From NCBI GenBank assembly GCA_011915565.1, contig GCA_011915565.1_3920.1: 64,000 nt of DNA. One strand, written 5' to 3'. This DNA comes from a phage. The translations under genes and the position numbers were made by a program. A model generated the notes under the pieces. It saw only the letters and a list, made by a program, of their open reading frames with translations, searched no databases and was not told the DNA's origin. Position 1 is the stretch's first letter; every line of letters starts with the position of its first letter. Positions 9,868 to 49,292 of this stretch are shown in pieces.

Positions 9868-12012
9868 ATGAACAAAGTACAGATTATTAAAAAGAATGGC
9901 TCACTTGAAGAACCCGATATCAAAAAAGTTTTAGCGGCAGTAACAAAGTCAGCTAACAGGGTTGGATATAAAGAACTGCCACCAGATGTTACCCAAGCTC
10001 TTGAGTCAGCATTCATGAGGATTTTGGTAAAGTCCACTAAGCAGAATAATTTGCTTATCTCGGTAAATGATATTCACAGTATTGTTGAAGGTGCTTTGGC
10101 AGAGGTCAATCACGAGATTTATGAGTCTTACTCAACATACAGAAATTACCGTAAAGAGGTTGCTCAAAATTGGGACGAACTCTACCAGAAGACTAAAGAT
10201 ACACTCTTCTTAGGTGACCGTGAAAATGCTAACTTTGACAGCAGTTTAATTTCTACGAAAGGTTCAATTATCCGTGGTTACCTGACTAAAGAAATCTTTA
10301 AACAGTATCATCTAACACCAGAGGAACTTGAAGCCATTGAGAAAGGCTTTATCTATATCCACGATTTGAGAGACCTGATTTTTGGTGGTATTAACTGTTG
10401 CCTGTTTGACATTGGTAAAGTACTAAAAGGTGGCTTTGAAATGTCCGGCATTGAGTACTGTGAACCTAAATCTGTACTGTCAGCGTTGCAGGTTATTGGT
10501 GACGTAGTACTTTCAGCAACTGCACAGCAATTTGGTGGTTTTACTTTAGCAGAGATTGATAAGGTACTTGTACCGTATGCTAAGAAGTCTCTACGCTATC
10601 ATGCTGAGAAAGCATCATCTTATGGTATTCCTAAAGAGCATTACCACAATTATGTAATGGAGCAGTTACAAATTGAACTGACTCAAGGTTTTCAGTCACT
10701 TGAGATGAAACTAAATACCGTACCTTGTAGCCGTGGTGATTTTGCATTCACAACTTTAACATTTGGTTTACTTGACTCAGATATGTCTAATGAGGATAAT
10801 CGACTACAATACATGATTGCAAGTACTCTCCTAGATGTTCGTATGAATGGACAAGGCAAGAGTAAAAAACCTGTTGTATTCCCTAAACTGGTTTATATTT
10901 ATGACCAGAAGAGACATGATGAGAATATCTGTCAAGGTCACCTGTACAGTAAAGCTATTGAGTGTTGCTCTAAAGCAATGTACCCAGATTTCTTAAGTGT
11001 GTCTGGTCATGGTGCTGTAGCAGAGGCTTTTGAGCGTTCTGGTAAGGTAATTTCACCGATGGGTTGCAGAGCCTTCTTATCTCCATATTTTAATGAGGAT
11101 GGGGAAGAGTTTTACGTTGGTCGTGCTAACATTGGTGCTGTATCTTTGAACTTGCCAATGATTTACCAGTACTCTAAAGAGAATGGTTTAGATTTCTGGA
11201 AAGAGCTTGATAAGTACCTAGAGATGATTCGCAACTTCCACAAGAAACGCTACGAAATGATTGCTAATATGCCAGCAAGTTCTAACCCTCTTGCGTTCAC
11301 ACAAGGTGGTCTGTACAAAGGAACTAAGAAACCTACTGACAAGGTTGGTTGGGATATTGTGAAGTCCTTCACAGCTTCTTTTGGTGTTACTGCGCTTGAT
11401 GAGTTGTCTGTTCTTGCTGAAGGTAAACGACTTCATGAAGTTGGAAGCTATAGTTTTGCATATGATGTTCTGGCATACATTAACATGAAAACCGAAGAGT
11501 TTAAAAATGAAGATGGCTTCTTATATGCCGTCTATGGTACTCCAGCAGAATCACTATGTGGGACTCAGCTAAAACAGTTCAGAGATATGTTTGGGGTTAT
11601 CAAAGGTGTTTCCGATAAGGAATACTTTACAAATAGTTTCCATATGAATGTTGCAGCAGACATCTCACCATTTGAGAAGCAGGACTTAGAAGAGCCATTC
11701 TTCCATATCTGTAGAGGCGGTAGAATCCAGTATGTAAGAGTAGCTAACCCAGAAAACTTAACAGCACTTAAAAGTTGTATTACAAGAGGTATGTTGAAAG
11801 GTTTCTATCAGGGACTTAACTTTGACTTAGCAATCTGTGAACATTGTGGTAACAGGCCAAAGGCTGATGTTGAAGAATGTGAAGTTTGTCACTCACATGA
11901 TATCTCTGTGATTAACAGGGTGTGTGGGTATCTTGGATGGACTAAGATTAAAGGTGAATCCCGAATGAACGATGCAAAAATCGCTGAGATTCGTGACAGA
12001 GTTTCTATGTAA
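9868..12012 (+). CDS. nrdD: anaerobic ribonucleoside-triphosphate reductase (class III)
   Basis: 714 aa; C-terminal Cys cluster (CEHCG...CEVC) and glycyl-radical-like RVCGYLG motif. Confidence 0.85.
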   Translation: MNKVQIIKKNGSLEEPDIKKVLAAVTKSANRVGYKELPPDVTQALESAFMRILVKSTKQNNLLISVNDIHSIVEGALAEVNHEIYESYSTYRNYRKEVAQNWDELYQKTKDTLFLGDRENANFDSSLISTKGSIIRGYLTKEIFKQYHLTPEELEAIEKGFIYIHDLRDLIFGGINCCLFDIGKVLKGGFEMSGIEYCEPKSVLSALQVIGDVVLSATAQQFGGFTLAEIDKVLVPYAKKSLRYHAEKASSYGIPKEHYHNYVMEQLQIELTQGFQSLEMKLNTVPCSRGDFAFTTLTFGLLDSDMSNEDNRLQYMIASTLLDVRMNGQGKSKKPVVFPKLVYIYDQKRHDENICQGHLYSKAIECCSKAMYPDFLSVSGHGAVAEAFERSGKVISPMGCRAFLSPYFNEDGEEFYVGRANIGAVSLNLPMIYQYSKENGLDFWKELDKYLEMIRNFHKKRYEMIANMPASSNPLAFTQGGLYKGTKKPTDKVGWDIVKSFTASFGVTALDELSVLAEGKRLHEVGSYSFAYDVLAYINMKTEEFKNEDGFLYAVYGTPAESLCGTQLKQFRDMFGVIKGVSDKEYFTNSFHMNVAADISPFEKQDLEEPFFHICRGGRIQYVRVANPENLTALKSCITRGMLKGFYQGLNFDLAICEHCGNRPKADVEECEVCHSHDISVINRVCGYLGWTKIKGESRMNDAKIAEIRDRVSM

Positions 12013-14802: not shown

Positions 14803-15073
14803 AGAAAAGTGGGAGATTTTACCATTAGTCAGTGAAGGAGGTAATGGTTGTGAAATGTACATGATACGTGGTCATGTTCCAGAGCCAATTGCACTTGAGA
14901 TGGTAAACAACTTTACAGATGGTTCTTACAAAGACTTAGGCGAACCAACTGTCAAGCAACAATGGGTTAAACCTGTACCAGACAGCACAGGTAACTGTAG
15001 TGTACTTTATCACGTTGTAGACCCTGCAAAATGCAAATCTGCAATGGCAGTAACAAACGTAACTTTTGATTGA
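14795..15073 (+). CDS. hypothetical protein
   Basis: 92 aa ORF. Confidence 0.45.
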   Translation: MAKEKWEILPLVSEGGNGCEMYMIRGHVPEPIALEMVNNFTDGSYKDLGEPTVKQQWVKPVPDSTGNCSVLYHVVDPAKCKSAMAVTNVTFD

Positions 15074-15084
15074 GAGAGAAAACT

Positions 15085-15966
15085 ATGAAAACATCTATCC
15101 GTGTTACAGTTCATTCACCAACTAAAGGGACTCATGAAGAAGAGTTTAACATCGTCCAATTCCCTTCTGGTGAGATTGGTGGACACTTTTCGCCAGAGTT
15201 TGTTGATTTTACTGCTTATGCAGCATCATCCATCAACAATGTGATTATGATTGTAAAAGGTTATGACAAGGACACATTGTTTGCTGTGGCACTTGCTAAA
15301 GAAGCAATTGATGATTTAATTCCTCATGATTATGCTTTAAAGACTGTCATCTTTTACTACTTACCAAATGCACGATATGACCGTCACATGTTTAAAGGTG
15401 ACGCAGCAGCTTTAAAGGTTTTTGCTAAACAGATTAATGCAATGGGATTTGGCGCAGTCTGTGCAGTTGACCCTCACAGCTATGTACCAGATAACCTGTT
15501 TAACTGCTTCCAGAGTATTCCTCAAAAGGAAATTGCAGTCCACTATGCAAATGACCCACTGATTGATTACTTAGTAGCCCCAGATGCAGGTGCTGCTAAG
15601 AAGATTGCAGAGACTGCTAAAGAGGTGGATAAACCATACATCACAATGTCTAAAGTACGCAACCTTAAGACTGGTGAAATTACTGGTATGCGAATCCTTG
15701 ATGATGTTGATTTGACAGATAAAACCGTCATGATTCTGGATGATATCTGTGATGGTGGTCGAACCTTCATAGAAGCAGCTAAACATCTTCGTGAAGCAGG
15801 TGCAAAACGTGTGGAACTCTATGTAACACACGGTATCTTCTCTAAAGATGTTGAAAACCTTCTTGACAATGGCATTGACCACATCTACACTACAAACTCT
15901 TTAGGGGAAGCTAAAGACCGTGGCTTAACACATTATGGTCAAGTTACTGTAGCAAACCTTGATTGA
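15085..15966 (+). CDS. ribose-phosphate pyrophosphokinase-like (PRPP synthetase family; candidate ADP-ribose pyrophosphokinase)
   Basis: PRTase-type nucleotide-binding loop VMILDDICDGGRTF; track start 15070 is TTG, ATG at 15085 chosen; immediately upstream of the NAMPT-like gene. Confidence 0.7.
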   Translation: MKTSIRVTVHSPTKGTHEEEFNIVQFPSGEIGGHFSPEFVDFTAYAASSINNVIMIVKGYDKDTLFAVALAKEAIDDLIPHDYALKTVIFYYLPNARYDRHMFKGDAAALKVFAKQINAMGFGAVCAVDPHSYVPDNLFNCFQSIPQKEIAVHYANDPLIDYLVAPDAGAAKKIAETAKEVDKPYITMSKVRNLKTGEITGMRILDDVDLTDKTVMILDDICDGGRTFIEAAKHLREAGAKRVELYVTHGIFSKDVENLLDNGIDHIYTTNSLGEAKDRGLTHYGQVTVANLD

Positions 15967-15975
15967 AACTTTATA

Positions 15976-15997
15976 GGGGCTTAAAAGCCCCATTTTG
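15976..15997 (+). terminator. intrinsic terminator-like hairpin
   Basis: GGGGC-TTAAAA-GCCCC followed by ATTTTG. Confidence 0.5.
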
Positions 15998-16011
15998 AGA
16001 GAGATTAAAAG

Positions 16012-17793
16012 ATGACTAAATCACTTTATGCAGTACCAGCAGGTTTAAACGCAGATGCTTACAAATCTGGTCATGTTTACCAGTACCCTAGTGCAACAGA
16101 GTACTTGATGTTCAACCTGACACCACGTAGTGACAAATGGTTTAACAGCCCCTTAGCAATTGATGGTGTAGTAGCTTTTGGTATTCAACGTTTCGTTAAA
16201 GATTACTTGATAGACCACTGGAACGCCACTTTCTTTGAACGTGATAAAAAAGAAGCCATTGATGAAATCTTAGAAGTTATGAATGGTGTTCTGGGTAAAG
16301 ATGCTATCGGTCGAGAGCATTGGGAAGCACTTCACGACTTAGGTTATCTACCAGTTGAAGTATACGCTGTAGAAGAAGGTACAGTTGTTCCTATGCGTGT
16401 ACCAATGATTGTCTTCCAGAACACTGTTTCAGGTTTCCATTGGGTAGCGGGATATCTGGAAGATGCTTTCTCTGCTGAGATTTGGAAGGCTTGTACCATT
16501 GCAACTATTGCATTGCATTATAAACGCATCTGTAAGAAGTGGGCTGACCTTACTTGCGACAATGACTTACATTTACCTTATCAGTGCCATGACTTTGCTA
16601 TGCGTGGTATGTCCGGCTTTACTGATGACGCATTTAACGCTGTAGGCCACTTAACCAGCTTTAAAGGGACTGATAGCTTCCCTGCTGTATATACAGCTAA
16701 ACGCATCTACGGACAGTCTTACCCAGTCTCTGATATTGGTGGTTCTGTACCAGCCACTGAACACTCTGTAATGTGTGCAAACATTGCTTGGGAAGGTGGT
16801 AATGAGTTGGTTGAAGAAGAAAGACGCTTTAAAGGTGAGTTGCAAACCTTCCGTCGCTTCTTAACAGAAACTTATCCAACTGGTATTGCAAGTGTTGTTT
16901 CAGACACTTATAACTTCTGGAGAACTGTGTCAGAAATCTTACCAGCACTCCGTAAAGAAATTATGGAACGTGATGGCAAACTGGTAATTCGTCCTGACTC
17001 TGGAGACCCTGTACACATTGTCACAGGTTATAAAGCAATCCACTTAGAGTGTGCTAAAAAGGCTTATTATGAGCACCTAAGCAATCTGGAAGCCAGTGAC
17101 ACAATGCTGAATGCTGTTCTGAACATGAAGCTTGAAAACATCAGCTATGGTATTGCTGGATGGCTACTGTCAGAAGGCTACGAAATGGTTGTTGACAGAG
17201 AAGACTTTGAAGTTGCTGATACAGTGATGTTGAAGAACGCTTATATGGTTGGTTCTGCAAACGTTGTAACACGCCCTGTAGCAGAGATTGATGGAGCTAT
17301 TAAGACCTTGTATAACATCTTTGGAGGAACTATTAACTCTAAAGGTTTTAAGGTACTGGATGAGCACATTGGCCTTATCTATGGCGACTCTATCACGTTG
17401 GAACGTGCAAACGAAATCCTGAAGCGTCTGTATGAAATGGGGTTTGCAAGCTCTAACGTGGTGTTTGGTGTAGGCTCTTACACTTACCAGTACATGACTC
17501 GTGACACCTTTGCATTTGCTGTCAAAGCAACTCTTGCAAGCATTGGTGGCAAAGAGATTATGCTTGCAAAAGACCCTAAAACAGATAGTGGTGTTAAGAA
17601 ATCTGCCTTTGGTGGTGTAGCACCTATGTGGGATGGTGAGAATTTGAAAGCTGTAGATGGCTATGGATTCCAGAGCTTTGCAGATGCACTTGAACATCCA
17701 GCTTGTGCTTTACGTTTAGTCTTTAGCGACTCTGAGCAGTACGGTTACACAACTCTTGGTGATATTCGAAATAATATTGACAATCAGCTTTAA
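16012..17793 (+). CDS. nicotinamide phosphoribosyltransferase-like enzyme (NAMPT/NadV family; candidate NAD+-forming transferase)
   Basis: 593 aa; N-terminal NADAYKSGHVYQYP resembles the conserved NAMPT start (DSYK..H..QYP). Confidence 0.75.
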   Translation: MTKSLYAVPAGLNADAYKSGHVYQYPSATEYLMFNLTPRSDKWFNSPLAIDGVVAFGIQRFVKDYLIDHWNATFFERDKKEAIDEILEVMNGVLGKDAIGREHWEALHDLGYLPVEVYAVEEGTVVPMRVPMIVFQNTVSGFHWVAGYLEDAFSAEIWKACTIATIALHYKRICKKWADLTCDNDLHLPYQCHDFAMRGMSGFTDDAFNAVGHLTSFKGTDSFPAVYTAKRIYGQSYPVSDIGGSVPATEHSVMCANIAWEGGNELVEEERRFKGELQTFRRFLTETYPTGIASVVSDTYNFWRTVSEILPALRKEIMERDGKLVIRPDSGDPVHIVTGYKAIHLECAKKAYYEHLSNLEASDTMLNAVLNMKLENISYGIAGWLLSEGYEMVVDREDFEVADTVMLKNAYMVGSANVVTRPVAEIDGAIKTLYNIFGGTINSKGFKVLDEHIGLIYGDSITLERANEILKRLYEMGFASSNVVFGVGSYTYQYMTRDTFAFAVKATLASIGGKEIMLAKDPKTDSGVKKSAFGGVAPMWDGENLKAVDGYGFQSFADALEHPACALRLVFSDSEQYGYTTLGDIRNNIDNQL

Positions 17794-22024: not shown

Positions 22025-22573
22025 ATGAAGAAATTGATTCTAGGTTTGTGCTTAATGTTTACAGCACACTTATCTTATGCAGTTGACTGCCCAGAGCTAT
22101 CAATTAGCCAAAAAGTGAACATGTTAAAAGCTTACCAGTATGGTGAGAATAACATGGGTAAAGGTTGGGGTATCACTCTAGCAGCTATAGCCTTACAAGA
22201 GTCAGAGTTAGGTCTGAAGGTAGAAAATAAAAAGACCCATGACTATGGTATCTTCCAGAATCACTTGAAGACTGTTGTAAAGCGTAACAAAATTAGTCCT
22301 AATGTTGCTAAAAAGAAACTCTTAAAAGATTTTGACTATGCTGCGAAGGAAACGCACAAAGAACTTGAGTTTTGGACAAAGGTGCATGGTCAGCCAAAGT
22401 CAAAGAAGACTTTACAAAAAGTTTTAGCATCATATAATGCTGGGTATTCGTACAGAATCCCTAAAGCTAAGAAGTATTCTCAAGATGTCTATAACAACAT
22501 GAAAGTTATTGCTCAATGTGAATTTGCAACAAACATTTCTAAGGTAAACCATGAAAAAATTAAAAAAGTCTGA
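22025..22573 (+). CDS. secreted protein with signal peptide (possible lytic-transglycosylase-like)
   Basis: MKKLILGLCLMFTAHLSYA signal peptide; ALQESELG...GIFQ loosely SLT-like; AGGAGA RBS. Confidence 0.55.
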   Translation: MKKLILGLCLMFTAHLSYAVDCPELSISQKVNMLKAYQYGENNMGKGWGITLAAIALQESELGLKVENKKTHDYGIFQNHLKTVVKRNKISPNVAKKKLLKDFDYAAKETHKELEFWTKVHGQPKSKKTLQKVLASYNAGYSYRIPKAKKYSQDVYNNMKVIAQCEFATNISKVNHEKIKKV

Positions 22574-23246
22574 TGAAGTCCTGTGCCACGCTTATGACTT
22601 ACATCCTCATGAGTTAGGTCTTGATTCCTGTGTATGGACTCCAGAACAGTGCAGAGATTTTGAAGACACTGCAAGAGAGGTTGTATGTTCACTTGAAGAG
22701 TTCCACACATCAGAACCCATTGTGAACGTTGTGGACAAAGAGACTGGACAAACTATAGGTGTAAGGCGTGATAGTTTAGTGATAGTCAATAAAGACCTTG
22801 TAGAAAAAGGTAACCTCATCTTAGCAGATATTGATGGTGTTCTTACAAATTTTAATCACGAAGATTGCTCAACGGAATTGACTGATGGGTCATTCTCACA
22901 GTACACTAATCTTCTTGATTCTGTAAGAGCAAAACCAACATATGTTTTCAACATTATTGATGCAATTGCAAATCATGCAGCAGTTGGACTCTTGACAGCA
23001 AGAGGTGAATCTCAGAGAATACCTACTGAGATGTTTTTAAGGCACAATATAGAGCATGATTACTTGCTTTTTATGCGTGGTTTTGGAACTAACTCTATAA
23101 GTGCAGAAAGTTTGAAAGTGAGGATGATTCAGTCTTGCATTCTTCCTTACTTTAATATAGTATGCTTTATAGAAGATACAGAGAAGAATGTTCAGAAGGT
23201 AAACAGAATCCTTCCACACATTAAAACCATGTTAGTTAAACATTGA
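22551..23246 (+). CDS. HAD-superfamily hydrolase-like protein
   Basis: LILADIDGVLT matches HAD motif I (DxDG); tentative. Confidence 0.5.
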   Translation: MKKLKKSDEVLCHAYDLHPHELGLDSCVWTPEQCRDFEDTAREVVCSLEEFHTSEPIVNVVDKETGQTIGVRRDSLVIVNKDLVEKGNLILADIDGVLTNFNHEDCSTELTDGSFSQYTNLLDSVRAKPTYVFNIIDAIANHAAVGLLTARGESQRIPTEMFLRHNIEHDYLLFMRGFGTNSISAESLKVRMIQSCILPYFNIVCFIEDTEKNVQKVNRILPHIKTMLVKH

Positions 23247-23733: not shown

Positions 23734-23756
23734 AGGCTCCTTCGGGAGCCTTTTTC
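23734..23756 (+). terminator. intrinsic terminator
   Basis: GGCTCC-TTCG-GGAGCC plus TTTTT. Confidence 0.75.
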
Positions 23757-25380: not shown

Positions 25381-25573
25381 CTTCTGCAAAGACTGTTCTA
25401 TCGAAATGTTCGGACGTGATACAGGTGACTTAAAAGGTCTTATCACTGAAGATGACTTTAAAGCTGGTTATGCAATGCCAGTAATCTGTGAAGGCTGTGG
25501 GTGTATCTGGGTAGACCACGAAGGACAACGTGTAAAACCTTCAGAAGACAAAGAATCTTGGGAGAGATGTTAA
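25373..25573 (+). CDS. hypothetical Cys-rich small protein
   Basis: Internal ATG of ORF 25295..25573 with AGAGG RBS; CKDC...CEGCGC motifs. Confidence 0.4.
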   Translation: MADFCKDCSIEMFGRDTGDLKGLITEDDFKAGYAMPVICEGCGCIWVDHEGQRVKPSEDKESWERC

Positions 25574-26359
25574 ATGGGTATTGTAAAAATAATTAATGGT
25601 GATATCTTTGCCGCATTTGATAAAGGTAAGTTTGACATCATCGGTCACGGTTGCAACTGTATGAACTTAATGGGTGCAGGTATCGCTGACAAGATTTCTA
25701 AACTTTACCCAAAAGCGTATGAGACCGATACAGAAGTTTATCTGTATGCAGGTGGTATAGGTCACAAACCCTGTGAAAATTTACTAGGTAATTTCTCTGT
25801 AGCACGTTTAAAACAAGGTCGTATAGCTAATCTTTACACTCAGCTTAAGACTGGTAAAGATGCCCGATACAGTGCTTTAGAGTCATCTTTGAAACAGCTT
25901 AACAGATACTGTGAAGTTAATCAGTTGAAGAAAGTTGGGTTACCTATGATTGGTGCAGGTATCGGTGGACTTGACCCTCAAGCCGTTACCGTTATCATTA
26001 ATCAGGTGATGAAGAGTGTAGATGTGTATCTGTATGTCTACGAAGGAGAGATGTACCACAAGTTACGCTCAGGTTGGAATAACTACTGCGAACCAGAATA
26101 CTTTGCAGGTGTAGTAACGTTCACAGACAATGCAGTTACCCTCTTCAGACGAAGAAAAGGTAAGATACATCAAAGTAACCCTCCGGTTGAAAAGATGTCT
26201 CTAAGTAACGCTCTAGTTACCCACCTGTCGAAGAGCAATCACAGAATTGCAGTAACATTTGGCAGTGATGCAGACACATATATCTATGCAAGGACTGATG
26301 AAGATATCGAGGAGATTTTCTCATCACAAGAAGTTACCTTCTTAGACGCAAAGAACTAA
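25574..26359 (+). CDS. hypothetical protein, tentatively macro-domain-like (ADP-ribose binding/processing)
   Basis: 261 aa; N-terminal FDIIGHGCNCMNLMGAGIADKI loosely resembles the macro-domain Gly-rich loop region; low certainty. Confidence 0.55.
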   Translation: MGIVKIINGDIFAAFDKGKFDIIGHGCNCMNLMGAGIADKISKLYPKAYETDTEVYLYAGGIGHKPCENLLGNFSVARLKQGRIANLYTQLKTGKDARYSALESSLKQLNRYCEVNQLKKVGLPMIGAGIGGLDPQAVTVIINQVMKSVDVYLYVYEGEMYHKLRSGWNNYCEPEYFAGVVTFTDNAVTLFRRRKGKIHQSNPPVEKMSLSNALVTHLSKSNHRIAVTFGSDADTYIYARTDEDIEEIFSSQEVTFLDAKN

Positions 26360-26390
26360 TAAACTCTGTAGAATATTCACAATAGATTAA

Positions 26391-26434
26391 GCCTTCCTTA
26401 TCTGGTAAATTTTTCAGGTAAGGAAGGCTTTTTT
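26391..26434 (+). terminator. intrinsic terminator
   Basis: 10-bp stem GCCTTCCTTA/TAAGGAAGGC followed by TTTTTT. Confidence 0.8.
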
Positions 26435-26627
26435 ATTTCAAGATTGTGCAGGTAGAGTTCTGTAGAGAAATCTGTAGAGAAAATTTTGAACTCCAAAGAG
26501 AAAATTCATTTTCAAACTGTGCAGGTAATCTCCAAAGAGCTTTTTCATTTTCAAAACGTGCAGACCCCGCTCAGGTCGGGCAAGAAAAATCATTTTAGAA
26601 TTGTGCAGGTAGGTGGATGCAGGTGGG
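26435..26627 (+). repeat. four direct repeats, consensus CATTTTCAAAnTGTGCAGGTA
   Basis: Copies near 26435, 26505, 26544, 26590; two also share CTCCAAAGAG upstream; lies between a terminator and the first early promoter. Confidence 0.6.
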
Positions 26628-26787
26628 GATGTCGCCATTTCTCACAAGGCTAACACATCTGGAAATAAAAGTCAACAGAAAAATTTGTAGCGGATTGAAA
26701 AATAATTCTTGATTGTAGTTCTGTTTTGTGGTAGTCGCGTGCGCCCGTTTCATTACAATTTTTGCAAAAATATTTTTAAAATTCCTA

Positions 26788-26816
26788 TTGACTCTTTGAG
26801 TATGGTTATCTAATAT
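26788..26816 (+). promoter_or_regulatory. sigma70-like promoter (TTGACT-17-TAATAT)
   Basis: Directly upstream of the first class-A hairpin leader. Confidence 0.55.
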
Positions 26817-26820
26817 TTGC

Positions 26821-26879
26821 ATCAACGGGGAGGGAATGACCTTCCCCACTAAGTAAAGTCCTAAACTGGAGATTCTAAA
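26821..26879 (+). promoter_or_regulatory. class-A leader element, copy 1
   Basis: ATCAACGGGGAGGGAATGACCTTCCCCACTAAgTAAAGTCCTAAACTGGAGATTCtAAA then ATG; GGGGAGG/CCTTCCCC hairpin plus RBS. Confidence 0.6.
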
Positions 26880-29870: not shown

Positions 29871-30413
29871 ATGAAATGCTTTCACGGTACTACTCAAGAA
29901 AACTTTATCAACCTGATTAATAACGGTGATAAACCATCAGGTGTATGGAATTGTTCGGATATGGACGGCAATTTTTACGTGTACCCAGAAAATAAACTCT
30001 ATGGTGATGATGAGGAAGAGATAGCATCGGAAGGTATCCAGCAAGCTCTAGGAAATGCCACTATCACGGCAGCTTTTCAGATGAAAACTCAAAATATTGT
30101 TATCTTAGAACTTGACATTCCAGAGGATGAGCTAAATGATGATTATTCTTGTGATAACATGTCAAATATAGCAAGCTTTACAGAGTACTTTGATGTAAAT
30201 TGGATTAAAAAGGTCTATACAACAGAGTTCAACGCTATGTATTCACCTTTTTGTCTCCCTTCACTGGATAATCCAAATTTGAATTATCTTGATGAAACAT
30301 TGGAGCTACTTGCTAAAAGTATCCAACAATCCGACAGTATTCAGGTTTTTTGTGACATCATGGATACACTGACAGAAAACATTGTAGAGAGTGATTTAAA
30401 GGTCTTTTTCTAA
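29871..30413 (+). CDS. early-array acidic protein 8
   Basis: 180 aa, strongly Asp/Glu-rich. Confidence 0.6.
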   Translation: MKCFHGTTQENFINLINNGDKPSGVWNCSDMDGNFYVYPENKLYGDDEEEIASEGIQQALGNATITAAFQMKTQNIVILELDIPEDELNDDYSCDNMSNIASFTEYFDVNWIKKVYTTEFNAMYSPFCLPSLDNPNLNYLDETLELLAKSIQQSDSIQVFCDIMDTLTENIVESDLKVFF

Positions 30414-42567: not shown

Positions 42568-43983
42568 ATGAGCGAATTATTTAAACATGCGCACCTTCAT
42601 GCAGGTCGAACTGAAAATGGTGCTGTAAACCATACTTCATCAATGTCTGCTCTTGTAGACTTTTACAAAGCTGCTGGTTCAAGCCGTAGCAATGTAGAAA
42701 TCTTACCAGACCTGTTCTACAAAGCTTTGCGTGAGGATGTTGATGTTGCAGTTCGTATTTTACTGCATATGCGAGATGTACGAGAAGGTATGGGTGAGCG
42801 TAAGGCCTTCAGAACTGTTTTACTTCAAGCGATTGAAGACAAAGTTTTAGAGCCTACGCAGGTTCTTCGCATTATGGATAAGGTTGCAGAACTTGGTCGT
42901 TTTGATGACTTCAAAATCTTCGTAGGTACTCGTTTCGAGACAGATGCCTTCAAGCATTTAGAAGCAGCATTACTAGACCCTGCAACAGCAGGTTTGGCGG
43001 CTAAGTGGTTACCACGAGTCAAACCACGTCATAAGCAGTTTGTAAAACGTTTCTGCAAGTTTGCCAACTTGAGTGAGAAAGAGTACCGCACACTGTTGTC
43101 TGCACTATCTGATACAGTTGAGCAAAAAATCTCTGCTAATGAGTTTGGTAAGATTGATTACAGCAAGATTCCTTCACTTGCTGCTGCACGTTACCAAAAA
43201 CTCTTTAACCGTAAAGATGGGGAACGTTACAAAGCTTACATTGAGTCTTTATCAAAGGGCGAGGCTAAGATTAATGCTGGTGCTGTTTACCCATACGATG
43301 TGATTAAATCTGTTAAGTATGGTAATGCAGATGTTGCTAATGAGCAGTGGAAAGCACTACCAAACTGGATGGCAGAAGGTGAAAACATCCTATGTATGAC
43401 TGATGTTTCAAGCTCAATGTATTGGGTGAATTTTGGTTCAATCACTGCACTTGATATTGGTGTATCACTTGCCTTGTATGTAGCAGAACGCAATACAGGT
43501 TGCTTTAAGGATGAGTTGATGGTTTATTCAACAAACCCTCACTTCATCGAACTGAGTGGTGATTTACGAAACCGTCATCGTCAGGTGATGCGACACGTTG
43601 AATATGGCTCAACCAACTTACAAGCAGCTTTTGACCGCATTCTTGAAACAGGTAAAAGAAACAACTTGACTCAGAAAGATATGCCAAGTAAGCTTATCAT
43701 CTTCTCCGATATGGAGTTTAATCAGGTTGATGGTGCTAATGGTCGTACAAACTTCGAAGCAATTCGAGATAAGTACGAAAAAGCTGGATATGAGATGCCA
43801 CAACTGGTATTCTGGTACTTAGCAAACCGTAATGGTACTTGCGAAGTATCTATTAAGGATAACGGTGTAGCAATGGTATCTGGTTTCTCTCCAGCCACTT
43901 TAAAAGCTTTGCTTGGTGGTGAGAAGTTTGACCCAATCAGCGTAATGCTCAAAGCAGTAATGATTGACCGTTACATCTGGTAA
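42568..43983 (+). CDS. von Willebrand factor A (vWA) domain protein with N-terminal helical domain
   Basis: 471 aa; MIDAS-like DVSSSM at about residue 280; domain order resembles Ro60/TROVE or DUF2828-type proteins (inference). Confidence 0.7.
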   Translation: MSELFKHAHLHAGRTENGAVNHTSSMSALVDFYKAAGSSRSNVEILPDLFYKALREDVDVAVRILLHMRDVREGMGERKAFRTVLLQAIEDKVLEPTQVLRIMDKVAELGRFDDFKIFVGTRFETDAFKHLEAALLDPATAGLAAKWLPRVKPRHKQFVKRFCKFANLSEKEYRTLLSALSDTVEQKISANEFGKIDYSKIPSLAAARYQKLFNRKDGERYKAYIESLSKGEAKINAGAVYPYDVIKSVKYGNADVANEQWKALPNWMAEGENILCMTDVSSSMYWVNFGSITALDIGVSLALYVAERNTGCFKDELMVYSTNPHFIELSGDLRNRHRQVMRHVEYGSTNLQAAFDRILETGKRNNLTQKDMPSKLIIFSDMEFNQVDGANGRTNFEAIRDKYEKAGYEMPQLVFWYLANRNGTCEVSIKDNGVAMVSGFSPATLKALLGGEKFDPISVMLKAVMIDRYIW

Positions 43984-44148: not shown

Positions 44149-44225
44149 CTCTGTTTAGCTCAGCTTGGTAGAGCGTTCCGTTTGGGGCGGTAAGGCCGGA
44201 GGTTCAAGTCCTCCAACAGAGACCA
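44149..44225 (+). tRNA. tRNA-Pro (anticodon TGG)
   Basis: Manual cloverleaf: acceptor CTCTGTT/AACAGAG, GGTTCAAGTCC T-arm, CCA encoded. Confidence 0.7.
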
Positions 44226-44232
44226 AATTAAT

Positions 44233-44310
44233 GTTCCAGTAGACAAAATGGTAAAGTCACCACTCTTTCAAAGTGGATATCTGAGGGTTCAAATCCCTTC
44301 TGGAACGCCA
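44233..44310 (+). tRNA. tRNA-Glu (anticodon TTC)
   Basis: Acceptor GTTCCAG/CTGGAAC; anticodon stem CCACT/AGTGG, loop CTTTCAA; CCA encoded. Confidence 0.7.
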
Positions 44311-44315
44311 GTTTT

Positions 44316-44392
44316 GACAGAAGACCAATTACAGCAAACTTAATCTTATTCATCTGAAGGTAAATCGGACAAAGAAGAGATTTGGTCTGGTC
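44316..44392 (+). other. tRNA-spacer structured element, copy 1 (CAGAAGACC...GGTCTGG)
   Basis: Conserved CAGAAGACCAATTACAGCAA head and TTGGTCTGG tail forming a 7-bp closing stem. Confidence 0.5.
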
Positions 44393-44401
44393 ATTAAGAA
44401 T

Positions 44402-44478
44402 TGCGGGTATAGAGAAAGGGTGTCTCACATGTCTCATTAGCATGGTATCGGCAGGTTCGACTCCTGCACCCGCCTCCA
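44402..44478 (+). tRNA. tRNA-Met (anticodon CAT)
   Basis: D-stem GAGA/TCTC, anticodon loop CTCATTA, T-arm GCAGG-TTCGACT-CCTGC, CCA encoded. Confidence 0.65.
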
Positions 44479-44480
44479 AA

Positions 44481-44550
44481 TTTACAGAAGACCGTTTACA
44501 GCAATACTTATTAAATTTTTAGCGGAAAAATTGAAAGATACGGTCTGGTA
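44481..44550 (+). other. tRNA-spacer structured element, copy 2
   Basis: TTTACAGAAGACCGTTTACAGCAA...ACGGTCTGG. Confidence 0.5.
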
Positions 44551-44561
44551 ATACTAAACAT

Positions 44562-44638
44562 GGTTAGGAAGCACATAAGGTATGTGCGGTCGCCTGTTAA
44601 GCGAATGGCACAGGGTTCGAATCCCTGACTAACCGCCA
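44562..44638 (+). tRNA. tRNA-Asn (anticodon GTT)
   Basis: Acceptor GGTTAGG/ACTAACC; anticodon loop CTGTTAA; T-arm CAGGG-TTCGAAT-CCCTG. Confidence 0.65.
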
Positions 44639-44646
44639 AATTAAAT

Positions 44647-44734
44647 GTGTCGTTATCCCGTAGATGGTAGCGGTGGGGACTGTAAATCCCTTGTCATTGA
44701 GACTCGGTAGGTTCGACTCCTACACGGCACACCA
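44647..44734 (+). tRNA. tRNA-Tyr (anticodon GTA), long variable arm
   Basis: 88 nt; anticodon stem-loop GGGGA-CTGTAAA-TCCCT; type II structure. Confidence 0.65.
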
Positions 44735-44739
44735 ATAAA

Positions 44740-44816
44740 GGCTATGTAGTTTAACTGGAGAAAATACTCCCCTGTCACGGGAGATGATGTGAGTTCAAGT
44801 CTCATCGTAGCCGCCA
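44740..44816 (+). tRNA. tRNA-Asp (anticodon GTC)
   Basis: Acceptor GGCTATG/CGTAGCC; anticodon stem CTCCC/GGGAG, loop CTGTCAC. Confidence 0.7.
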
Positions 44817-44875
44817 ATTTTGAGAGGGCTATTTAGTTCCTCCCTTAAAGAGTTCTTACGAGTATTCTTTAAAGG

Positions 44876-44952
44876 AGCAGAAGACCAAATACAGCAAGAA
44901 TGTATGAAATTTCAAGCCAATTTAATTTTGAAAATTTAAAACTTGGTCTGGC
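44876..44952 (+). other. tRNA-spacer structured element, copy 3
   Basis: GCAGAAGACCAAATACAGCAA...CTTGGTCTGG. Confidence 0.5.
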
Positions 44953-44963
44953 TCAACAAATTT

Positions 44964-45098
44964 ACAGAAGACCGTTTACAGCAAAACTTAAACAATCTAT
45001 TTCTCCGGTAAAGAAAAGGCGAAGGTTCGATTCCTTCACTCGGCAGATGTCGAGTTGGTGTAATGGTAGCACTTAAGATGATAAACAACGGTCTGGTA
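44964..45098 (+). other. tRNA-spacer structured element, copy 4, containing a degenerate tRNA-like segment
   Basis: TTTACAGAAGACCGTTTACAGCAA head; T-arm-like GAAGG-TTCGATT-CCTTC, hairpin ACTCGGCA/TGTCGAGT, D-arm-like TGGTGTAATGGTAGCAC, then ACGGTCTGG. Confidence 0.45.
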
Positions 45099-45239
45099 AT
45101 TATCTTTGTAGATAAGTTATTAAGCTTACCTGTGAGTATGCGACCACAAAGGGTGAAGGGTAAATTCTAGATTTAAACCCAAAAGGCACATCGCTACAGA
45201 CCTTAAGCAAGTCTGGGTAGCTTATCTACAAAGATAATT
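45098..45239 (+). other. perfect 19-bp inverted repeat enclosing 104 nt
   Basis: AATTATCTTTGTAGATAAG at 45098-45116 and its exact reverse complement at 45221-45239; lies between spacer element 4 and tRNA-Lys. Confidence 0.6.
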
Positions 45240-45243
45240 TAAT

Positions 45244-45319
45244 GGAAGTGTAGCAGAATGGTGATGCGGCAGACTTTTAATCTGACAGGCGATGGGTTCG
45301 AATCCCTCCACTTCTACCA
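45244..45319 (+). tRNA. tRNA-Lys (anticodon TTT)
   Basis: Anticodon loop CTTTTAA; T-arm ATGGG-TTCGAAT-CCCTC; paralog of the 46541 tRNA. Confidence 0.6.
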
Positions 45320-45397
45320 AATTCACCCTTAACTGAGAAACACCTGCGCGGCTGGAAACACCCACTCAACAGTTTCTCTAACTAGGGTACTTATTCT

Positions 45398-45474
45398 GGT
45401 TCAGTCGCAGATAAGGTAATGCAAGGGTCTCATAAGCCCTATGAATGTGGGTTCGATTCCCATCTGAACCTCCA
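45398..45474 (+). tRNA. tRNA with CAT anticodon (Met or lysidine-Ile)
   Basis: Acceptor GGTTCAG/CTGAACC; anticodon stem AGGGT/GCCCT, loop CTCATAA. Confidence 0.6.
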
Positions 45475-45475
45475 A

Positions 45476-45551
45476 GCTGGTATAGTTAAGAAGGTTATAA
45501 CACTCCCCTGATAAGGGAACATCGGTGGTTCGATTCCACCTACCAGTACCA
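45476..45551 (+). tRNA. tRNA-Ile (anticodon GAT)
   Basis: Acceptor GCTGGTA/TACCAGT; anticodon loop CTGATAA. Confidence 0.65.
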
Positions 45552-45566
45552 ATTTCAATAAAGTTG

Positions 45567-45595
45567 TTGACATTGAGATGTGACTCCTTTATACT
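45567..45595 (+). promoter_or_regulatory. sigma70-like promoter (TTGACA-17-TATACT)
   Basis: Inside the tRNA array, upstream of a 200-nt hairpin-rich spacer and tRNA-Arg. Confidence 0.55.
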
Positions 45596-45797
45596 AACCT
45601 TAGTTTTCGTTGCGTAGCGTCTATTTTGCAAATTTAAAATAAATGCAAACGACAATGTTTTTCTGGCAGTAGCTTGATAGGCTAAACACCAGTGAGGTCT
45701 TCCAATCCCTCATCAAAGAATTTGGCGTACTCGCCCACGGTATGATTAATAAGGTGGGCATCTTTAAGGGCTTTCTAAGAGAGTCTTTAAAGATAAT

Positions 45798-45874
45798 GCA
45801 CCCTTAGTTCAATTGGATAGAGCAACGGTCTTCTAAATCGTTAGTTACAGGTTCGAATCCTGTAGGGTGTACCA
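45798..45874 (+). tRNA. tRNA-Arg (anticodon TCT)
   Basis: Acceptor GCACCCT/AGGGTGT; D-arm GTTC...GAGC; anticodon loop CTTCTAA. Confidence 0.7.
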
Positions 45875-46016
45875 AATAGTTAGCAGATTACTTAGACGGC
45901 CTTAGCGGGTCTTCCTGTAGGGAGGTGGTCTGTATCTCATGTTTTCCAGAACATGTAAATAATCTGAGAAGAAGCTTGACAGTGTTGAGATAACAGGGTA
46001 AGCTTCGAATTATAAT

Positions 46017-46099
46017 ATGGGACGATGTTAAGACTCTAAGGCATGAGCAACGGCCTCCAAAACCGTTTCAAAGGGGTTCAACTCCTCCGTCCCATGCCA
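46017..46099 (+). tRNA. tRNA-Trp (anticodon CCA)
   Basis: Acceptor ATGGGAC/GTCCCAT; anticodon loop CTCCAAA; 83 nt with enlarged D region; preceded by TATAAT. Confidence 0.55.
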
Positions 46100-46112
46100 A
46101 AGTCTTATTAGG

Positions 46113-46200
46113 GGTAGGTAGCGGCTAATGGCAGCCAAACAGTCTTGAAAACTGTTGCCACTGTAGAGATACGGTGAGGGTTCGACTCCTTTACTTACCG
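46113..46200 (+). tRNA. tRNA-Ser (anticodon TGA), long variable arm
   Basis: Anticodon stem ACAGT/ACTGT, loop CTTGAAA; type II; no CCA encoded. Confidence 0.6.
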
Positions 46201-46376
46201 CCTAATAAGATTTACTCCGTCCATGCTTGTTCGCATTGTCGGTTTATCCCTCGTGTATTGTCGTACACTGTCAAAGCACCTAGTAGGTGTCACGGAGAAG
46301 AGATAATATCAAGCTCTCCAAAGGTTCTAGTCACCGGATTAAACAAGACTATGCAAAGACCTATTTAGGTCTTTTT
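46201..46376 (+). ncRNA. candidate structured non-coding RNA ending in an intrinsic terminator
   Basis: No ORF; long-range complementarity (ACTCCGTCC ... GTCACGGAGAAG); ends with AGACC-TATTT-AGGTCT plus TTTTT at 46355-46376. Confidence 0.4.
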
Positions 46377-46456
46377 AGAGGGCTTCTAAGGTTATTAGTC
46401 GCTTGTTGTGGAACCTTGTTGCTCAGGTTCTTAGAAGTTCTCTAAAAAGATTTAAT

Positions 46457-46533
46457 GCACCTATAGCCCAACTGGTAGAGGCAGCAGACTTAGAATCTGC
46501 TCAGTGTGAGTTCGAATCTCTCTAGGTGTACCA
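46457..46533 (+). tRNA. tRNA with TAG anticodon (Leu by anticodon; short variable arm)
   Basis: Acceptor GCACCTA/TAGGTGT; anticodon stem GCAGA/TCTGC, loop CTTAGAA; 77 nt, type I. Confidence 0.55.
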
Positions 46534-46540
46534 AATTAAT

Positions 46541-46616
46541 GCAGGTGTAGCAAAATGGTTATGCGGCTGACTCTTAATCAGTAAGACGATGGGTTCAATT
46601 CCCTCCACCTGTACCA
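46541..46616 (+). tRNA. tRNA-Lys (anticodon CTT)
   Basis: Paralog of the 45244 tRNA; anticodon loop CTCTTAA. Confidence 0.55.
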
Positions 46617-46622
46617 AACAAT

Positions 46623-46698
46623 GGGGTCATAGTTTATATGGTTAAAATTCGAGTTTTGCAAACTTGGGAACCGAGTTCAATTCTCGGTGACTCCACCA
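46623..46698 (+). tRNA. tRNA-Ala (anticodon TGC)
   Basis: Clean 76-nt cloverleaf: GGGGTCA acceptor, GTTT/AAAT D-stem, loop TTTGCAA, T-arm CCGAG-TTCAATT-CTCGG. Confidence 0.7.
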
Positions 46699-46704
46699 AT
46701 TAGT

Positions 46705-46779
46705 GCATCCATAGTTTAAACGGGAAAATTACAGTCTTCCAAACTGAGGTTGAGGGTTCGATTCCCTCTGGATGCTCCA
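46705..46779 (+). tRNA. tRNA-Gly (anticodon TCC)
   Basis: Acceptor GCATCCA/TGGATGC; anticodon loop CTTCCAA. Confidence 0.65.
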
Positions 46780-46786
46780 AATTAAT

Positions 46787-46862
46787 GCTCCTATCGTATA
46801 ATTGGTTATTACGGTTGCCTTGTAAGCAACTTATCAGGGTTCGAGTCCTTGTGGGAGCACCA
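46787..46862 (+). tRNA. tRNA-Thr (anticodon TGT)
   Basis: Anticodon stem GTTGC/GCAAC perfect, loop CTTGTAA; T-arm CAGGG-TTCGAGT-CCTTG. Confidence 0.7.
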
Positions 46863-46892
46863 ATTCAGAGGTCAAGTGAAAGACCGCTTTGA

Positions 46893-46950
46893 GTCAACTG
46901 AAGACCGTAACAAATTCCACGGAGTTGAGTTAGCGGCACAACTCCAGACC
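46893..46950 (+). other. tRNA-spacer structured element, diverged copy 5
   Basis: CTGAAGACCGTAACAAATTCC related to the CAGAAGACC head; enclosed by AGAGGTC/GACCTCT inverted repeat. Confidence 0.4.
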
Positions 46951-46958
46951 TCTTTCAT

Positions 46959-47033
46959 ACTCGCTTAGTTTATATGGTAAAACATCACCCTTACAAGATG
47001 AAGAAAAAGGTTCAAGTCCTTTAGTGAGTACCA
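46959..47033 (+). tRNA. tRNA-Val (anticodon TAC)
   Basis: D-stem GTTT/AAAC; anticodon loop CTTACAA; T-arm AAAGG-TTCAAGT-CCTTT. Confidence 0.65.
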
Positions 47034-47034
47034 T

Positions 47035-47112
47035 GTTCCAGTATCCCAATTGGCAGAGGATGCAAGCTCAAACCTTGTATTAGTGACGGTTCGAATCCGT
47101 CTTGGAACACCA
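47035..47112 (+). tRNA. tRNA with CAA anticodon (Leu by anticodon; short variable arm)
   Basis: Acceptor GTTCCAG/TTGGAAC; anticodon stem GCAAG/CTTGT, loop CTCAAAC; T-arm GACGG-TTCGAAT-CCGTC. Confidence 0.55.
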
Positions 47113-47117
47113 ATTTT

Positions 47118-47193
47118 GCAGGATTAGTTCAAATGGAAAGAGCAACAGTCTACGAAGCTGTTAATAGGGGTTCGAATCCCTTATCCTGCGCCA
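47118..47193 (+). tRNA. tRNA-Arg (anticodon ACG)
   Basis: Clean 76-nt cloverleaf; anticodon stem ACAGT/GCTGT, loop CTACGAA. Confidence 0.7.
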
Positions 47194-47210
47194 GATAAAA
47201 AGGTGATACT

Positions 47211-47453
47211 ATGCAAACATTAACAGTAGTTGAACATGAAAACTGTGAGAGTATTGAGTTTGTCAGGGTCATTGGTGTTGAACACCACATTTTCTTAAAA
47301 GTTGGATACTTATGTGACCCCGCTAGAGTAGAAAGATTTATACGTGATTGTTTTGGTGGTAGACATCTGAAGAGTGTTATTTTTGAGACAGTTTTACCAG
47401 AAGGTTTAGAAACGAATAATAACATTTACCTCCTTACGAGGATTAGACAATGA
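47211..47453 (+). CDS. hypothetical protein embedded in tRNA array
   Basis: 80 aa; AAGGTGA RBS 6 nt upstream; directly follows tRNA-Arg. Confidence 0.5.
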   Translation: MQTLTVVEHENCESIEFVRVIGVEHHIFLKVGYLCDPARVERFIRDCFGGRHLKSVIFETVLPEGLETNNNIYLLTRIRQ

Positions 47454-48007
47454 GATACTTAAAGTATGCTTCATGGATTTTCTTAGCTTTGTTAGAGCCA
47501 TTTGCAGCAATCTTAGCAGTTATCTTAGCACCTTTTGTAGTTCCATTCTACAGTGAGAAGAAAGGACACTTACCTTTCGGGTTCAGATGGATGGAGACTT
47601 ATGACAACCCAATTGATGGTGATGCAGGTCATATCAAACGATGGGCTAAGATTAGAAAGATTGGTAAGCTTGGTGTCTACATGCAGAGAGTTGGATGGCT
47701 CTGGAGAAACAAAGCTTATAACTTCTCTTACCATGTGTTAGGAAGAGATGTAAAAGACGTTACTAAGTGGAAAGGTAATATCAACGTAAGTTCTAACCCT
47801 GAAGATAATCAGACAGGTTATCTCCTAATGTGGAACAGTAATGCTTGGGGATTATTCGCTTTTATCCCATCAATTAAAATCTTTGGTAAACAATTCTACT
47901 GGAGAATTTATGTTGGATGGAAACTTAAAAGTGTTGTCCCAGAAGAAAGAGCATTCTCAAGGGAAAGAGTTATGTTGGCATTCTTTATTCATCCACTAAG
48001 AAAGTAA
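47450..48007 (+). CDS. membrane protein embedded in tRNA array
   Basis: 185 aa; N-terminal TM segment WIFLALLEPFAAILAVILAPFVVPF; start overlaps upstream stop (ATGA). Confidence 0.6.
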   Translation: MRYLKYASWIFLALLEPFAAILAVILAPFVVPFYSEKKGHLPFGFRWMETYDNPIDGDAGHIKRWAKIRKIGKLGVYMQRVGWLWRNKAYNFSYHVLGRDVKDVTKWKGNINVSSNPEDNQTGYLLMWNSNAWGLFAFIPSIKIFGKQFYWRIYVGWKLKSVVPEERAFSRERVMLAFFIHPLRK

Positions 48008-48015
48008 AGATTTAA

Positions 48016-48091
48016 AGGGGATTAGTTTACAAGGTTAAAACCTCGGTCTTTGAAATCGAAGAAGTTGGTTCAATTCCAACATCCCCCGCCA
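48016..48091 (+). tRNA. tRNA-Gln (anticodon TTG)
   Basis: Anticodon loop CTTTGAA; T-arm GTTGG-TTCAATT-CCAAC; unpaired 1:72 and G73. Confidence 0.65.
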
Positions 48092-48093
48092 AT

Positions 48094-48172
48094 GCTCCAT
48101 TACTCCAATTGGCAGAGAGGCCAGACTTAAAATCTGTGTTATGTATCGGTTCGAATCCGATATGGAGTACCA
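48094..48172 (+). tRNA. tRNA with TAA anticodon (Leu by anticodon; short variable arm)
   Basis: Acceptor GCTCCAT/ATGGAGT; anticodon loop CTTAAAA; D-loop AATTGGCAGA shared with the 47035 tRNA. Confidence 0.5.
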
Positions 48173-48177
48173 AATTT

Positions 48178-48253
48178 AGCGGTATAGCATAACTGGCAAT
48201 GCAGCAGCCTCTGAAGCTGTCCTATTAAGGTTCAAATCCTTATGCCGCTGCCA
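48178..48253 (+). tRNA. tRNA-Gln (anticodon CTG)
   Basis: Acceptor AGCGGTA/TGCCGCT; anticodon stem GCAGC/GCTGT, loop CTCTGAA; G73. Confidence 0.6.
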
Positions 48254-48284
48254 CTTCTAAGGATTCTTACGAGAGTCCTTAAAT

Positions 48285-48360
48285 GTGGCCTTATCATAAA
48301 TGGTAATGACCCATGCTGTGAACATGGTCTATACGGGTTCAAATCCCGTAGGTCACCCCA
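48285..48360 (+). tRNA. tRNA-His (anticodon GTG)
   Basis: Anticodon stem CCATG/CATGG perfect, loop CTGTGAA; discriminator C. Confidence 0.7.
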
Positions 48361-48366
48361 ATTTAT

Positions 48367-48442
48367 AGTCCAAGTAGCTTATATGGTTAAAGCGCGTGTC
48401 TGAAAAACATGAGAAGAGGGTTCAAATCCCACTGGACTACCA
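48367..48442 (+). tRNA. tRNA-Phe (anticodon GAA)
   Basis: Anticodon stem CGTGT/ACATG, loop CTGAAAA; T-loop TTCAAAT; CCA encoded. Confidence 0.6.
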
Positions 48443-48458
48443 ATTTCAAAGGTGCTTA

Positions 48459-49193: not shown

Positions 49194-49195
49194 AT

Positions 49196-49288
49196 GGAAG
49201 ATTAACCCTAAAAGGTAAGGGAGCAGTTTGCTAAACTGCCAGTAGCTGAGAAATCGGTGTACCAGTTCAAGTCTGGTATCTTCCTCCA
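49196..49288 (+). tRNA. tRNA-Ser (anticodon GCT), long variable arm
   Basis: Acceptor GGAAGAT/ATCTTCC; anticodon stem GCAGT/ACTGC, loop TTGCTAA; T-arm TACCAG-TTCAAGT-CTGGTA. Confidence 0.65.
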
Positions 49289-49292
49289 ATTT

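Follow-up and report, generated by a model that had tools for sequence, protein, structure and literature searches.

The window analysed here, a 64,000-nucleotide stretch of phage DNA (contig GCA_011915565.1_3920.1), carries on its plus strand a complete coding sequence at positions 25574–26359 (stop included) for a two-domain protein of 261 amino acids, as a preliminary description of the region had correctly placed it. The gene starts with an ATG, 7 nt behind a Shine-Dalgarno sequence read from the DNA (GGGAGAG, plus strand, 25560–25566), and this ATG abuts the TAA of a preceding small ORF, to which its translation is likely to be coupled. It is the last gene of a unit bounded on the plus strand by intrinsic terminators at 23734–23751 and 26389–26430, the second of them strong, with a 17-bp stem and a T-run, and it follows i- and o-spanin-like ORFs and several small ORFs that have no family match. 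The unit sits in the plus-strand block of rII, nrd and NARP1 genes. Its small neighbours are of early type, T4 tk.4 is likewise placed among the early genes of T4, and we infer that the macro gene is expressed early in infection.

This region of the window is 93–95% identical to the DNA of about 200 Felix O1-like phages (Felixounavirus) of Escherichia coli and Salmonella, and the macro gene is conserved across these genomes under the labels ‘putative macro domain protein’, ‘phosphatase’ and ‘O-acetyl-ADP-ribose deacetylase’. Its orthologue in phage Bas63 (JohannRWettstein) is gp95, a ‘putative phosphatase’ with 97% identity to the window protein. The HMM of PHROG 335 (‘phosphatase’) matches residues 1–260 at E=1.9e-112; a T4-like Tk.4 homologue and gp175 of Vibrio phage Hades match the same HMM at 4e-70 and 1e-48 respectively. 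The product is a macrodomain protein of PHROG 335, the phage family that includes Tk.4 (AdfM) of T4 and Adpp. Relatives of its macrodomain were found by tblastn in 2857 of 50,697 phage records, among T4-like, rV5-like, Vi01-like, PB1-like and Felix-like phages, and the Hades protein used as the query returned essentially the same 2000+ genomes. The macro and phosphatase labels were already public, and roles for the family were published in 2025–2026; the unexplained feature of the window gene is its orphan C-terminal domain.

The preliminary description had noted that a Gly-rich N-terminal segment, residues 20–41, resembles the ADP-ribose loop of macro domains, and had rated its own call as one of weak motif resemblance only. 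The segment is such a loop, and ‘weak’ understates the resemblance. The score for Pfam Macro (PF01661), 32.3 bits (E=1e-7), exceeds the curated gathering cutoff of 22, with the profile covered nearly end to end, and a profile built from 30 homologues matches the solved structures of TARG1 (4e-17), Mycobacterium tuberculosis DarG (4e-16), SCO6735 (3e-15), Poa1p (4e-15), BT1257 (3e-14) and Thermus aquaticus DarG (1e-13). Structure prediction, which had been proposed as the check on the macro call, upheld it: the AlphaFold model made from the same 30-homologue alignment is confident (pLDDT 90.5, pTM 0.89) and has the three-layer alpha/beta/alpha macro fold. Both Gly-rich ADP-ribose/phosphate loops, MGAGIA (33–38) and IGAGIGG (126–132), are present, and their glycines are invariant or near-invariant. 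By sequence and by structure the nearest relatives belong to the ALC1-like class (TARG1, DarG, Poa1p and SCO6735) and not to the MacroD-, PARG- or macroH2A-type classes. Enzymes of the ALC1-like class hydrolyse groups attached to C1'' of ADP-ribose, and the sequence of the window macrodomain fits a Gln-type branch of this class.

A broad role would be conceivable for such a domain, in that it could remove mono-ADP-ribose from protein (Glu/Asp) or RNA, or deacetylate O-acetyl-ADP-ribose, and thereby act against ART-based defences of other kinds or adjust ADP-ribosylation in the infected cell, with no specificity for DarT2 or aRES. Among members of the same class, TARG1 and SCO6735 also hydrolyse Glu/Asp-linked ADP-ribose on protein, the public annotations include ‘O-acetyl-ADP-ribose deacetylase’, and macro domains are the most widespread ADP-ribose-processing domains of phages, occurring in 41% of myoviruses with substrates that are largely untested (PMC9503650). 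However, SCO6735 strongly prefers DNA over protein substrates, the Lys/Asp dyad with which TARG1 de-ADP-ribosylates protein is absent (Q90 and G131 in the window protein), and the ‘ymdB/deacetylase’ labels were carried over by automatic annotation from another class, the MacroD type. The two phage-family members that have been characterised each serve a specific anti-defence function, and no ADP-ribosyltransferase is annotated in the inspected part of the Bas63 genome. We therefore regard a host-takeover eraser of this general kind as quite improbable.

The macrodomain occupies residues 1–157 (plus strand, 25574–26044) and has an intact active site of the Gln type. Its first loop, the ADP-ribose-binding motif H25-G-C-N28-C...M33-G-A-G-I-A38 (25646–25690), is anchored by H25, G26, N28, C29, M33, G36 and A38, all invariant in the 30 homologues, which reach down to 28% identity and in which P46 and G72 are invariant as well. 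The second motif, N86-L-Y-T-Q90 (25829–25843), has invariant N86, L87, T89 and Q90; aligned to DarG sequences taken from the PDB and to TARG1, it falls on NFPTK of DarG and YLITK of TARG1, and its N-x-x-T is DarG-like. The phosphate-binding loop 2, P124-M-I-G-A-G-I-G-G-L-D134 (25943–25975; P124, G127 and G129 invariant), aligns with PPLGxGNGGL of DarG and PRIGCGLDRL of TARG1 and has the DarG-like GxGxGG. In four alignments Q90 (codon 25841–25843) stands at the position of Lys80 in DarG and Lys84 in TARG1, and G131 falls in the column of TARG1 Asp125. Through these lysines, and so by a transitive comparison, Q90 corresponds to Gln85 of SCO6735 (PMC9411070); N28 (codon 25655–25657), which aligns with the catalytic Asn22 of DarG, is likely to be the equivalent of SCO6735 N27, again transitively, via DarG.

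The Streptomyces enzyme SCO6735 shows what such a site can do. Where DarG and TARG1 have their catalytic lysines it has Gln85, and Asn27 keeps this residue in position; Q85A and Q85E mutants are inactive and N27S is nearly dead (PMC9411070). The enzyme cleaves DarT-made dT-ADPr on DNA faster than does DarG or TARG1, leaves guanosine-ADP-ribose uncleaved, and rescues E. coli from DarT (PMC9411070). As Gln85 is essential for catalysis there, Gln in place of Lys at residue 90 does not imply a dead enzyme, and we predict that the window macrodomain is catalytically competent. The loss of the DarG/TARG1 lysine could instead be taken to mark a non-catalytic reader or sponge that sequesters ADP-ribose-derived signals or adducts, and some macrodomains are pure readers (PMC9503650). 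However, besides the requirement for Gln in SCO6735, there is catalytic activity in Adpp, which has a homologue in Hades with this Gln-type signature, and none of the 30 diverse homologues departs from Gln90, Asn28 or the two Gly-rich loops, so that a pure binder seems highly improbable.

The remainder of the protein, residues 158–261 (about 100 amino acids; plus strand, 26045–26356), forms a beta-rich orphan module confined to macro proteins of Felix-like (Ounavirinae-type) phages. Only one Pro and one Gly are invariant among its homologues, it has no Pfam match, and in BFVD its sole match is the homologue encoded by phage SUSP2. When 1.84e9 representative proteins were searched with a profile, just 11 matches came back, of which the genuine ones are the same macro fusion or pieces of it (the truncated gene call P0032 and the 54-amino-acid fragment P0036), and the others are repeat beta-proteins (PQQ propellers, adhesins and retroelement polyproteins) that score through repetition. 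An NCBIfam ‘inorganic diphosphatase’ hit to the module (E=0.094) was treated as chance. Binding of nucleic acid was also considered and set aside: net charge is not conserved in the module and nothing suggests such binding. It appears to be a module particular to this lineage, for binding or for structure, and, with respect to an action on DarT2 adducts, it is a point on the other side of the argument that both Tk.4 and Adpp do without it.

The same genome carries the NAD+/ADP-ribose-handling pair to which the preliminary description had referred. This is NARP1 (plus strand, 15070–17793), identified by Pfam and by identity to Bas63 g79 and g80: Adps (15070–15966; Pribosyltran/Pribosyl_synth) is Prs-like and 78% identical to g79, and Namat (16012–17793; NAPRTase/NAMPT_N) is NampT-like and 98% identical to g80. 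Experiments have established that the two Bas63 genes restore NAD+ and act against SIR2-HerA and further systems. A macro enzyme that works alongside NARP1 is known from Vibrio phage Gary, in which Adpp, a Poa1p-like macro protein encoded between Adps and Namat, converts ADPR-1''-phosphate to ADPR; it acts on the product of the aRES NAD+ phosphorylase, which lets NARP1 rebuild NAD+, and it is genetically required against aRES (10.64898/2026.01.28.702374). The window protein could likewise be mainly an ADPR-1''-phosphate phosphatase that acts in trans with the phage's own NARP1, as a ‘split’ NARP1-AP. A defence of the aRES/RES type would split NAD+ by phosphorolysis into nicotinamide and ADPR-1''-P; the latter is no substrate for Adps, and the macro enzyme would turn it into ADPR for NARP1. 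We consider this possible but less probable than the anti-DarT2 role proposed below, with which it is compatible; if the macro protein does have this activity, NARP1 is a possible functional partner.

Several findings are in keeping with such a division of labour. The Hades macro gene, gp175, lies between Adps and Namat in the same three-gene operon and stood in here for the Gary protein that had been assayed; it is a PHROG 335 member, carries HQCNC, NVYGQ and PLIGCGLAGG, and shares with the window protein 29.9% identity and a common HxCNC / N-x-Y-x-Q / PxIGxG signature. Loop 1 of the window protein (HGCNC) is nearer to HSCNC of Poa1p than to NTVNC of DarG, and aRES systems were cloned from bacteria that these phages infect, namely E. 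coli, Klebsiella and Enterobacter. In the contigs of all three distant two-domain homologues examined (35–41% identity), a NARP1 gene is followed by rIIA-rIIB, a PNKP-like gene and then the macro gene, some 9–10 kb downstream of the NARP1 gene. The survey of Adpp looked only within two genes of NARP1 (10.64898/2026.01.28.702374), and a distal macro copy would therefore have escaped it. It also bears on the matter that the only biochemically assayed member of the phage family, Gary Adpp, is an ADPR-1''-P phosphatase, and with NARP1 present this role would suit the window protein equally well, which speaks against removal of DarT2 adducts.

However, the NARP1-AP definition requires an operon, with the macro gene within two genes of NARP1, and in the window the macro gene is separated from Namat, which lies upstream, by 7.8 kb, some 16 genes and two terminators, and belongs to another transcription unit. 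Its product is nearer to T4 Tk.4 (81 bits) than to Hades Adpp (58 bits), and it has neither the 7-residue insertion that follows Gln in Hades Adpp nor the Y-G-Q variant of that protein, a comparison made through Hades gp175 as the proxy for the tested Gary enzyme. The family is not tied to NARP1, since many of its T4-like copies have no adjacent NARP1 (their neighbours are vs and tk), and although NARP1 is a constant companion in the two-domain lineage, shared synteny confounds this co-occurrence.

The yeast Poa1p has a further role that might be considered for a phage with 26 tRNAs, namely clearance of ADPR-1''-P made by a Tpt1/KptA-type 2'-phosphotransferase when tRNAs cleaved by anticodon nucleases of the host are repaired. 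A PNKP-like gene lies 2.3 kb upstream of the macro gene, Bas63 gp107 has been reported as weakly similar to the C-terminal domain of Tpt1, and one relative (P0026) has a cyclic-phosphate-processing receiver domain fused to its macro domain. However, the window counterpart of gp107 (29871–30413) showed no similarity to Tpt1 in sequence searches of Pfam and the PDB, the PNKP-like ORF gives no Pfam match, and neither an RNA ligase nor a 2H phosphoesterase is annotated in the inspected region of Bas63. A function in RNA repair is accordingly very unlikely.

We propose, at a probability of about one in two, that the window gene encodes an early anti-defence enzyme that removes DarT2-derived ADP-ribose from phage DNA, possibly with dephosphorylation of ADPR-1''-P in addition. 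The host toxin DarT2 would ADP-ribosylate thymidines in single-stranded phage DNA; the ADP-ribose would sit between two loops, HGCNC...MGAGIA and PMIGAGIGG, with its distal ribose positioned by Asn28 and Gln90; and a mechanism like that of SCO6735, water-mediated and without a lysine, would free the ADP-ribose and allow phage replication to resume. The same active site might, as in Adpp, dephosphorylate ADPR-1''-phosphate to ADP-ribose for the phage's own NARP1 when an aRES-type NAD+ phosphorylase is active. We favour the anti-DarT2 role because Tk.4 is the nearest characterised relative and has the exact YTQ motif and loop lengths, because a Gln-type site has been proven to cleave dT-ADPr, and because the macro gene is not operonic with NARP1. 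Deletion of tk.4 sensitizes T4 to DarTG2, as found in a transposon screen and with a clean deletion, and the protein has been named AdfM (HIDEN-SEQ preprint, 10.1101/2025.11.20.689424); this evidence is genetic, comes from a preprint and concerns T4 alone. The PhageMaP knockout screen of Bas63 did not flag gene 95, and the paper is silent on DarTG; a search of the literature found nothing that links Bas63 or Felixounavirus to DarTG2. The preliminary description had interpreted the gene as one for an ADP-ribose-binding or -hydrolysing protein, which is supported, and its suggestion that the phage manipulates ADP-ribose signalling or reverses ADP-ribosylation-based defence appears well aimed.

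Macrodomains are often promiscuous. Since both substrates carry a C1'' leaving group on the distal ribose, a single enzyme could serve the two of them. A more elaborate version of this idea, which we think unlikely, is that one enzyme is directed against two unrelated defences, acting on the DNA adducts of DarT2 and, in a ‘split’ NARP1-AP, on the ADPR-1''-P of aRES, and that the C-terminal domain is a novel module that binds a toxin or directs targeting, comparable to the DarT-binding domain of DarG in role though not in fold. If the proposed anti-DarT2 function is true, Felix O1-like phages, a large group used for typing, biocontrol and therapy of Salmonella and E. coli, carry a counter to DarTG2 and possibly to aRES, and their host range on strains with DarTG2 or aRES would be easier to predict. 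Across the family, the macrodomains may each be specialised for dT-ADPr DNA or ADPR-1''-P, or may erase C1''-linked ADP-ribose in general, and NARP1-AP may prove far commoner than the 15% reported if distal macro genes are included.

Among the known systems, DarG is the best NCBIfam and PADLOC match of the window protein, and membership was nevertheless rejected: NCBIfam NF048014 scores 47.6 bits against an equivalog cutoff of 250, five-fold below it, with the macro part alone aligned. DarG2 and the chimallivirus AdfM have the catalytic Lys80 (in NFPTK or LLPTK) where the window protein has Gln, and neither the DarT-binding C-terminal domain of DarG nor its adjacent darT is found in the window. 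The AdfM of PhiKZ, a Lys-type phage macrodomain, removes DarT2 adducts (PMC13309987). Its chimallivirus clade, found in about 300 phage genomes, is DarG-like, with TVNC and LLPTK (PhiKZ gp104, Asesino gp217; PMC13309987), and clusters with DarG at 85–91 bits, against only 21–29 bits to the Gln-type phage proteins. The DarG2/chimallivirus AdfM cluster as a whole scores 85–181 bits internally and 29–41 bits to the window protein, and DarG, the Lys-type chimallivirus AdfM and TARG1 together span 29–45 bits to it in BLASTP. Human TARG1/OARD1 is the best match among solved structures, but its mechanism was rejected for the window protein, which does not have the Lys84/Asp125 dyad. Yeast Poa1p shares the H-x-C-N-C loop; both it and TARG1 are cellular proteins of eukaryotes and serve different physiological functions. 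SCO6735 and BT1257 are bacterial housekeeping or repair proteins with marginal single-sequence matches to the window protein (E 0.04–0.5), and SCO6735 (E=0.49) belongs to a different subclass of the ALC1-like macrodomains, one with a longer ‘mobile loop’.

The closest characterised relative is T4 Tk.4, at 35.4% identity over 161 amino acids in BLASTP. Both proteins have the signature AHGCNC, NLYTQ and PxIGAGIG (PRIGAGIG in Tk.4), and both are encoded by orphan phage genes among small early genes; tk.4 has no adjoining NARP1 gene. Identity at this level leaves room for a shifted substrate preference, a point against the anti-DarT2 role, and Tk.4 is a single domain of 155 amino acids where the window protein has a second one. 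The two proteins that bear the name AdfM, T4 Tk.4 and PhiKZ gp104, fall in different macrodomain lineages and differ in catalytic residue (Gln and Lys respectively). Tk.4 and Adpp, by comparison, are one family of more than 2800 phage genes, yet they have been assigned different substrates.

A regulatory or operator function is possible for the intergenic stretch directly 3' of the macro gene terminator (26431-26879). The motif TGTGCAGGTA is present there in three exact copies, at 26445, 26518 and 26602 (spacing of approximately 73 and 84 bp), and is found exactly nowhere else across the 64-kb window; TCTGTAGAG is repeated in tandem at 26459 and 26471. A promoter-like element, TTGACT-17-TAATAT, is located at 26788-26816, 5' of the next gene. 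Small minus-strand ORFs are annotated at the corresponding region in related phages.

Two non-orthologous phage macrodomains, represented by T4 tk.4 (L006:4926-5390, on the T4 sequence) and Asesino gp217 (L007:571-1071, on the Asesino sequence), each separately received the name AdfM. T4 Tk.4 is of the Gln-type and belongs to PHROG 335, whereas PhiKZ gp104 and Asesino gp217 are of the Lys-type and DarG-like, and the mutual score between the two groups is only 21-24 bits. In a metagenomic protein of 339 amino acids (P0026), a relative of the macro domain encoded at 25574-26359 is fused to cREC_REC (Pfam PF20274), a 'cyclic-phosphate processing receiver' domain, and this fusion hints that some members of the family use ADP-ribose cyclic-phosphate or 1''-phosphate metabolites as substrate.

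Several other ORFs have counterparts in Bas63, a close Felix O1-type relative. The 231-aa ORF at 22551-23246 is a 'polynucleotide kinase' by the Bas63 annotation; however, the evidence behind this label is weak, as the ORF had no Pfam match even at E<=10 and the HAD_PNKP marks among its homologues were weak or faint. The 180-aa ORF at 29871-30413 is by position the counterpart of Bas63 gp107, for which a weak resemblance to the RNA 2'-phosphotransferase NAD-binding domain and conditional importance on strain S17-1 have been reported. When this ORF was compared with Pfam and PDB sequences, nothing matched beyond a chance-level hit to CTD12 (E=0.03). The 26 clustered tRNA genes (44149-49368, plus strand) match the Bas63 tRNA block, and closely 5' of them is a 471-aa ORF (42568-43983), the counterpart of Bas63 g130, a Ro60-like protein reported to act against the ppl and hhe defences.

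Relatedness to Bas63 is uneven within the NARP1 NAD+-reconstitution pair (15070-17793). Namat shares 98% identity with g80 but Adps only 78% with g79, the differences falling mostly within the N-terminal ~180 residues of Adps, which suggests recombination or mosaicism inside the operon. Intron/HEG presence in nrdD also seems to differ between these close relatives, since Bas63 nrdD is annotated as a two-piece join split by a homing-endonuclease gene, whereas the NrdD-like ORF at 9868-12012 is one unbroken frame of 714 amino acids.
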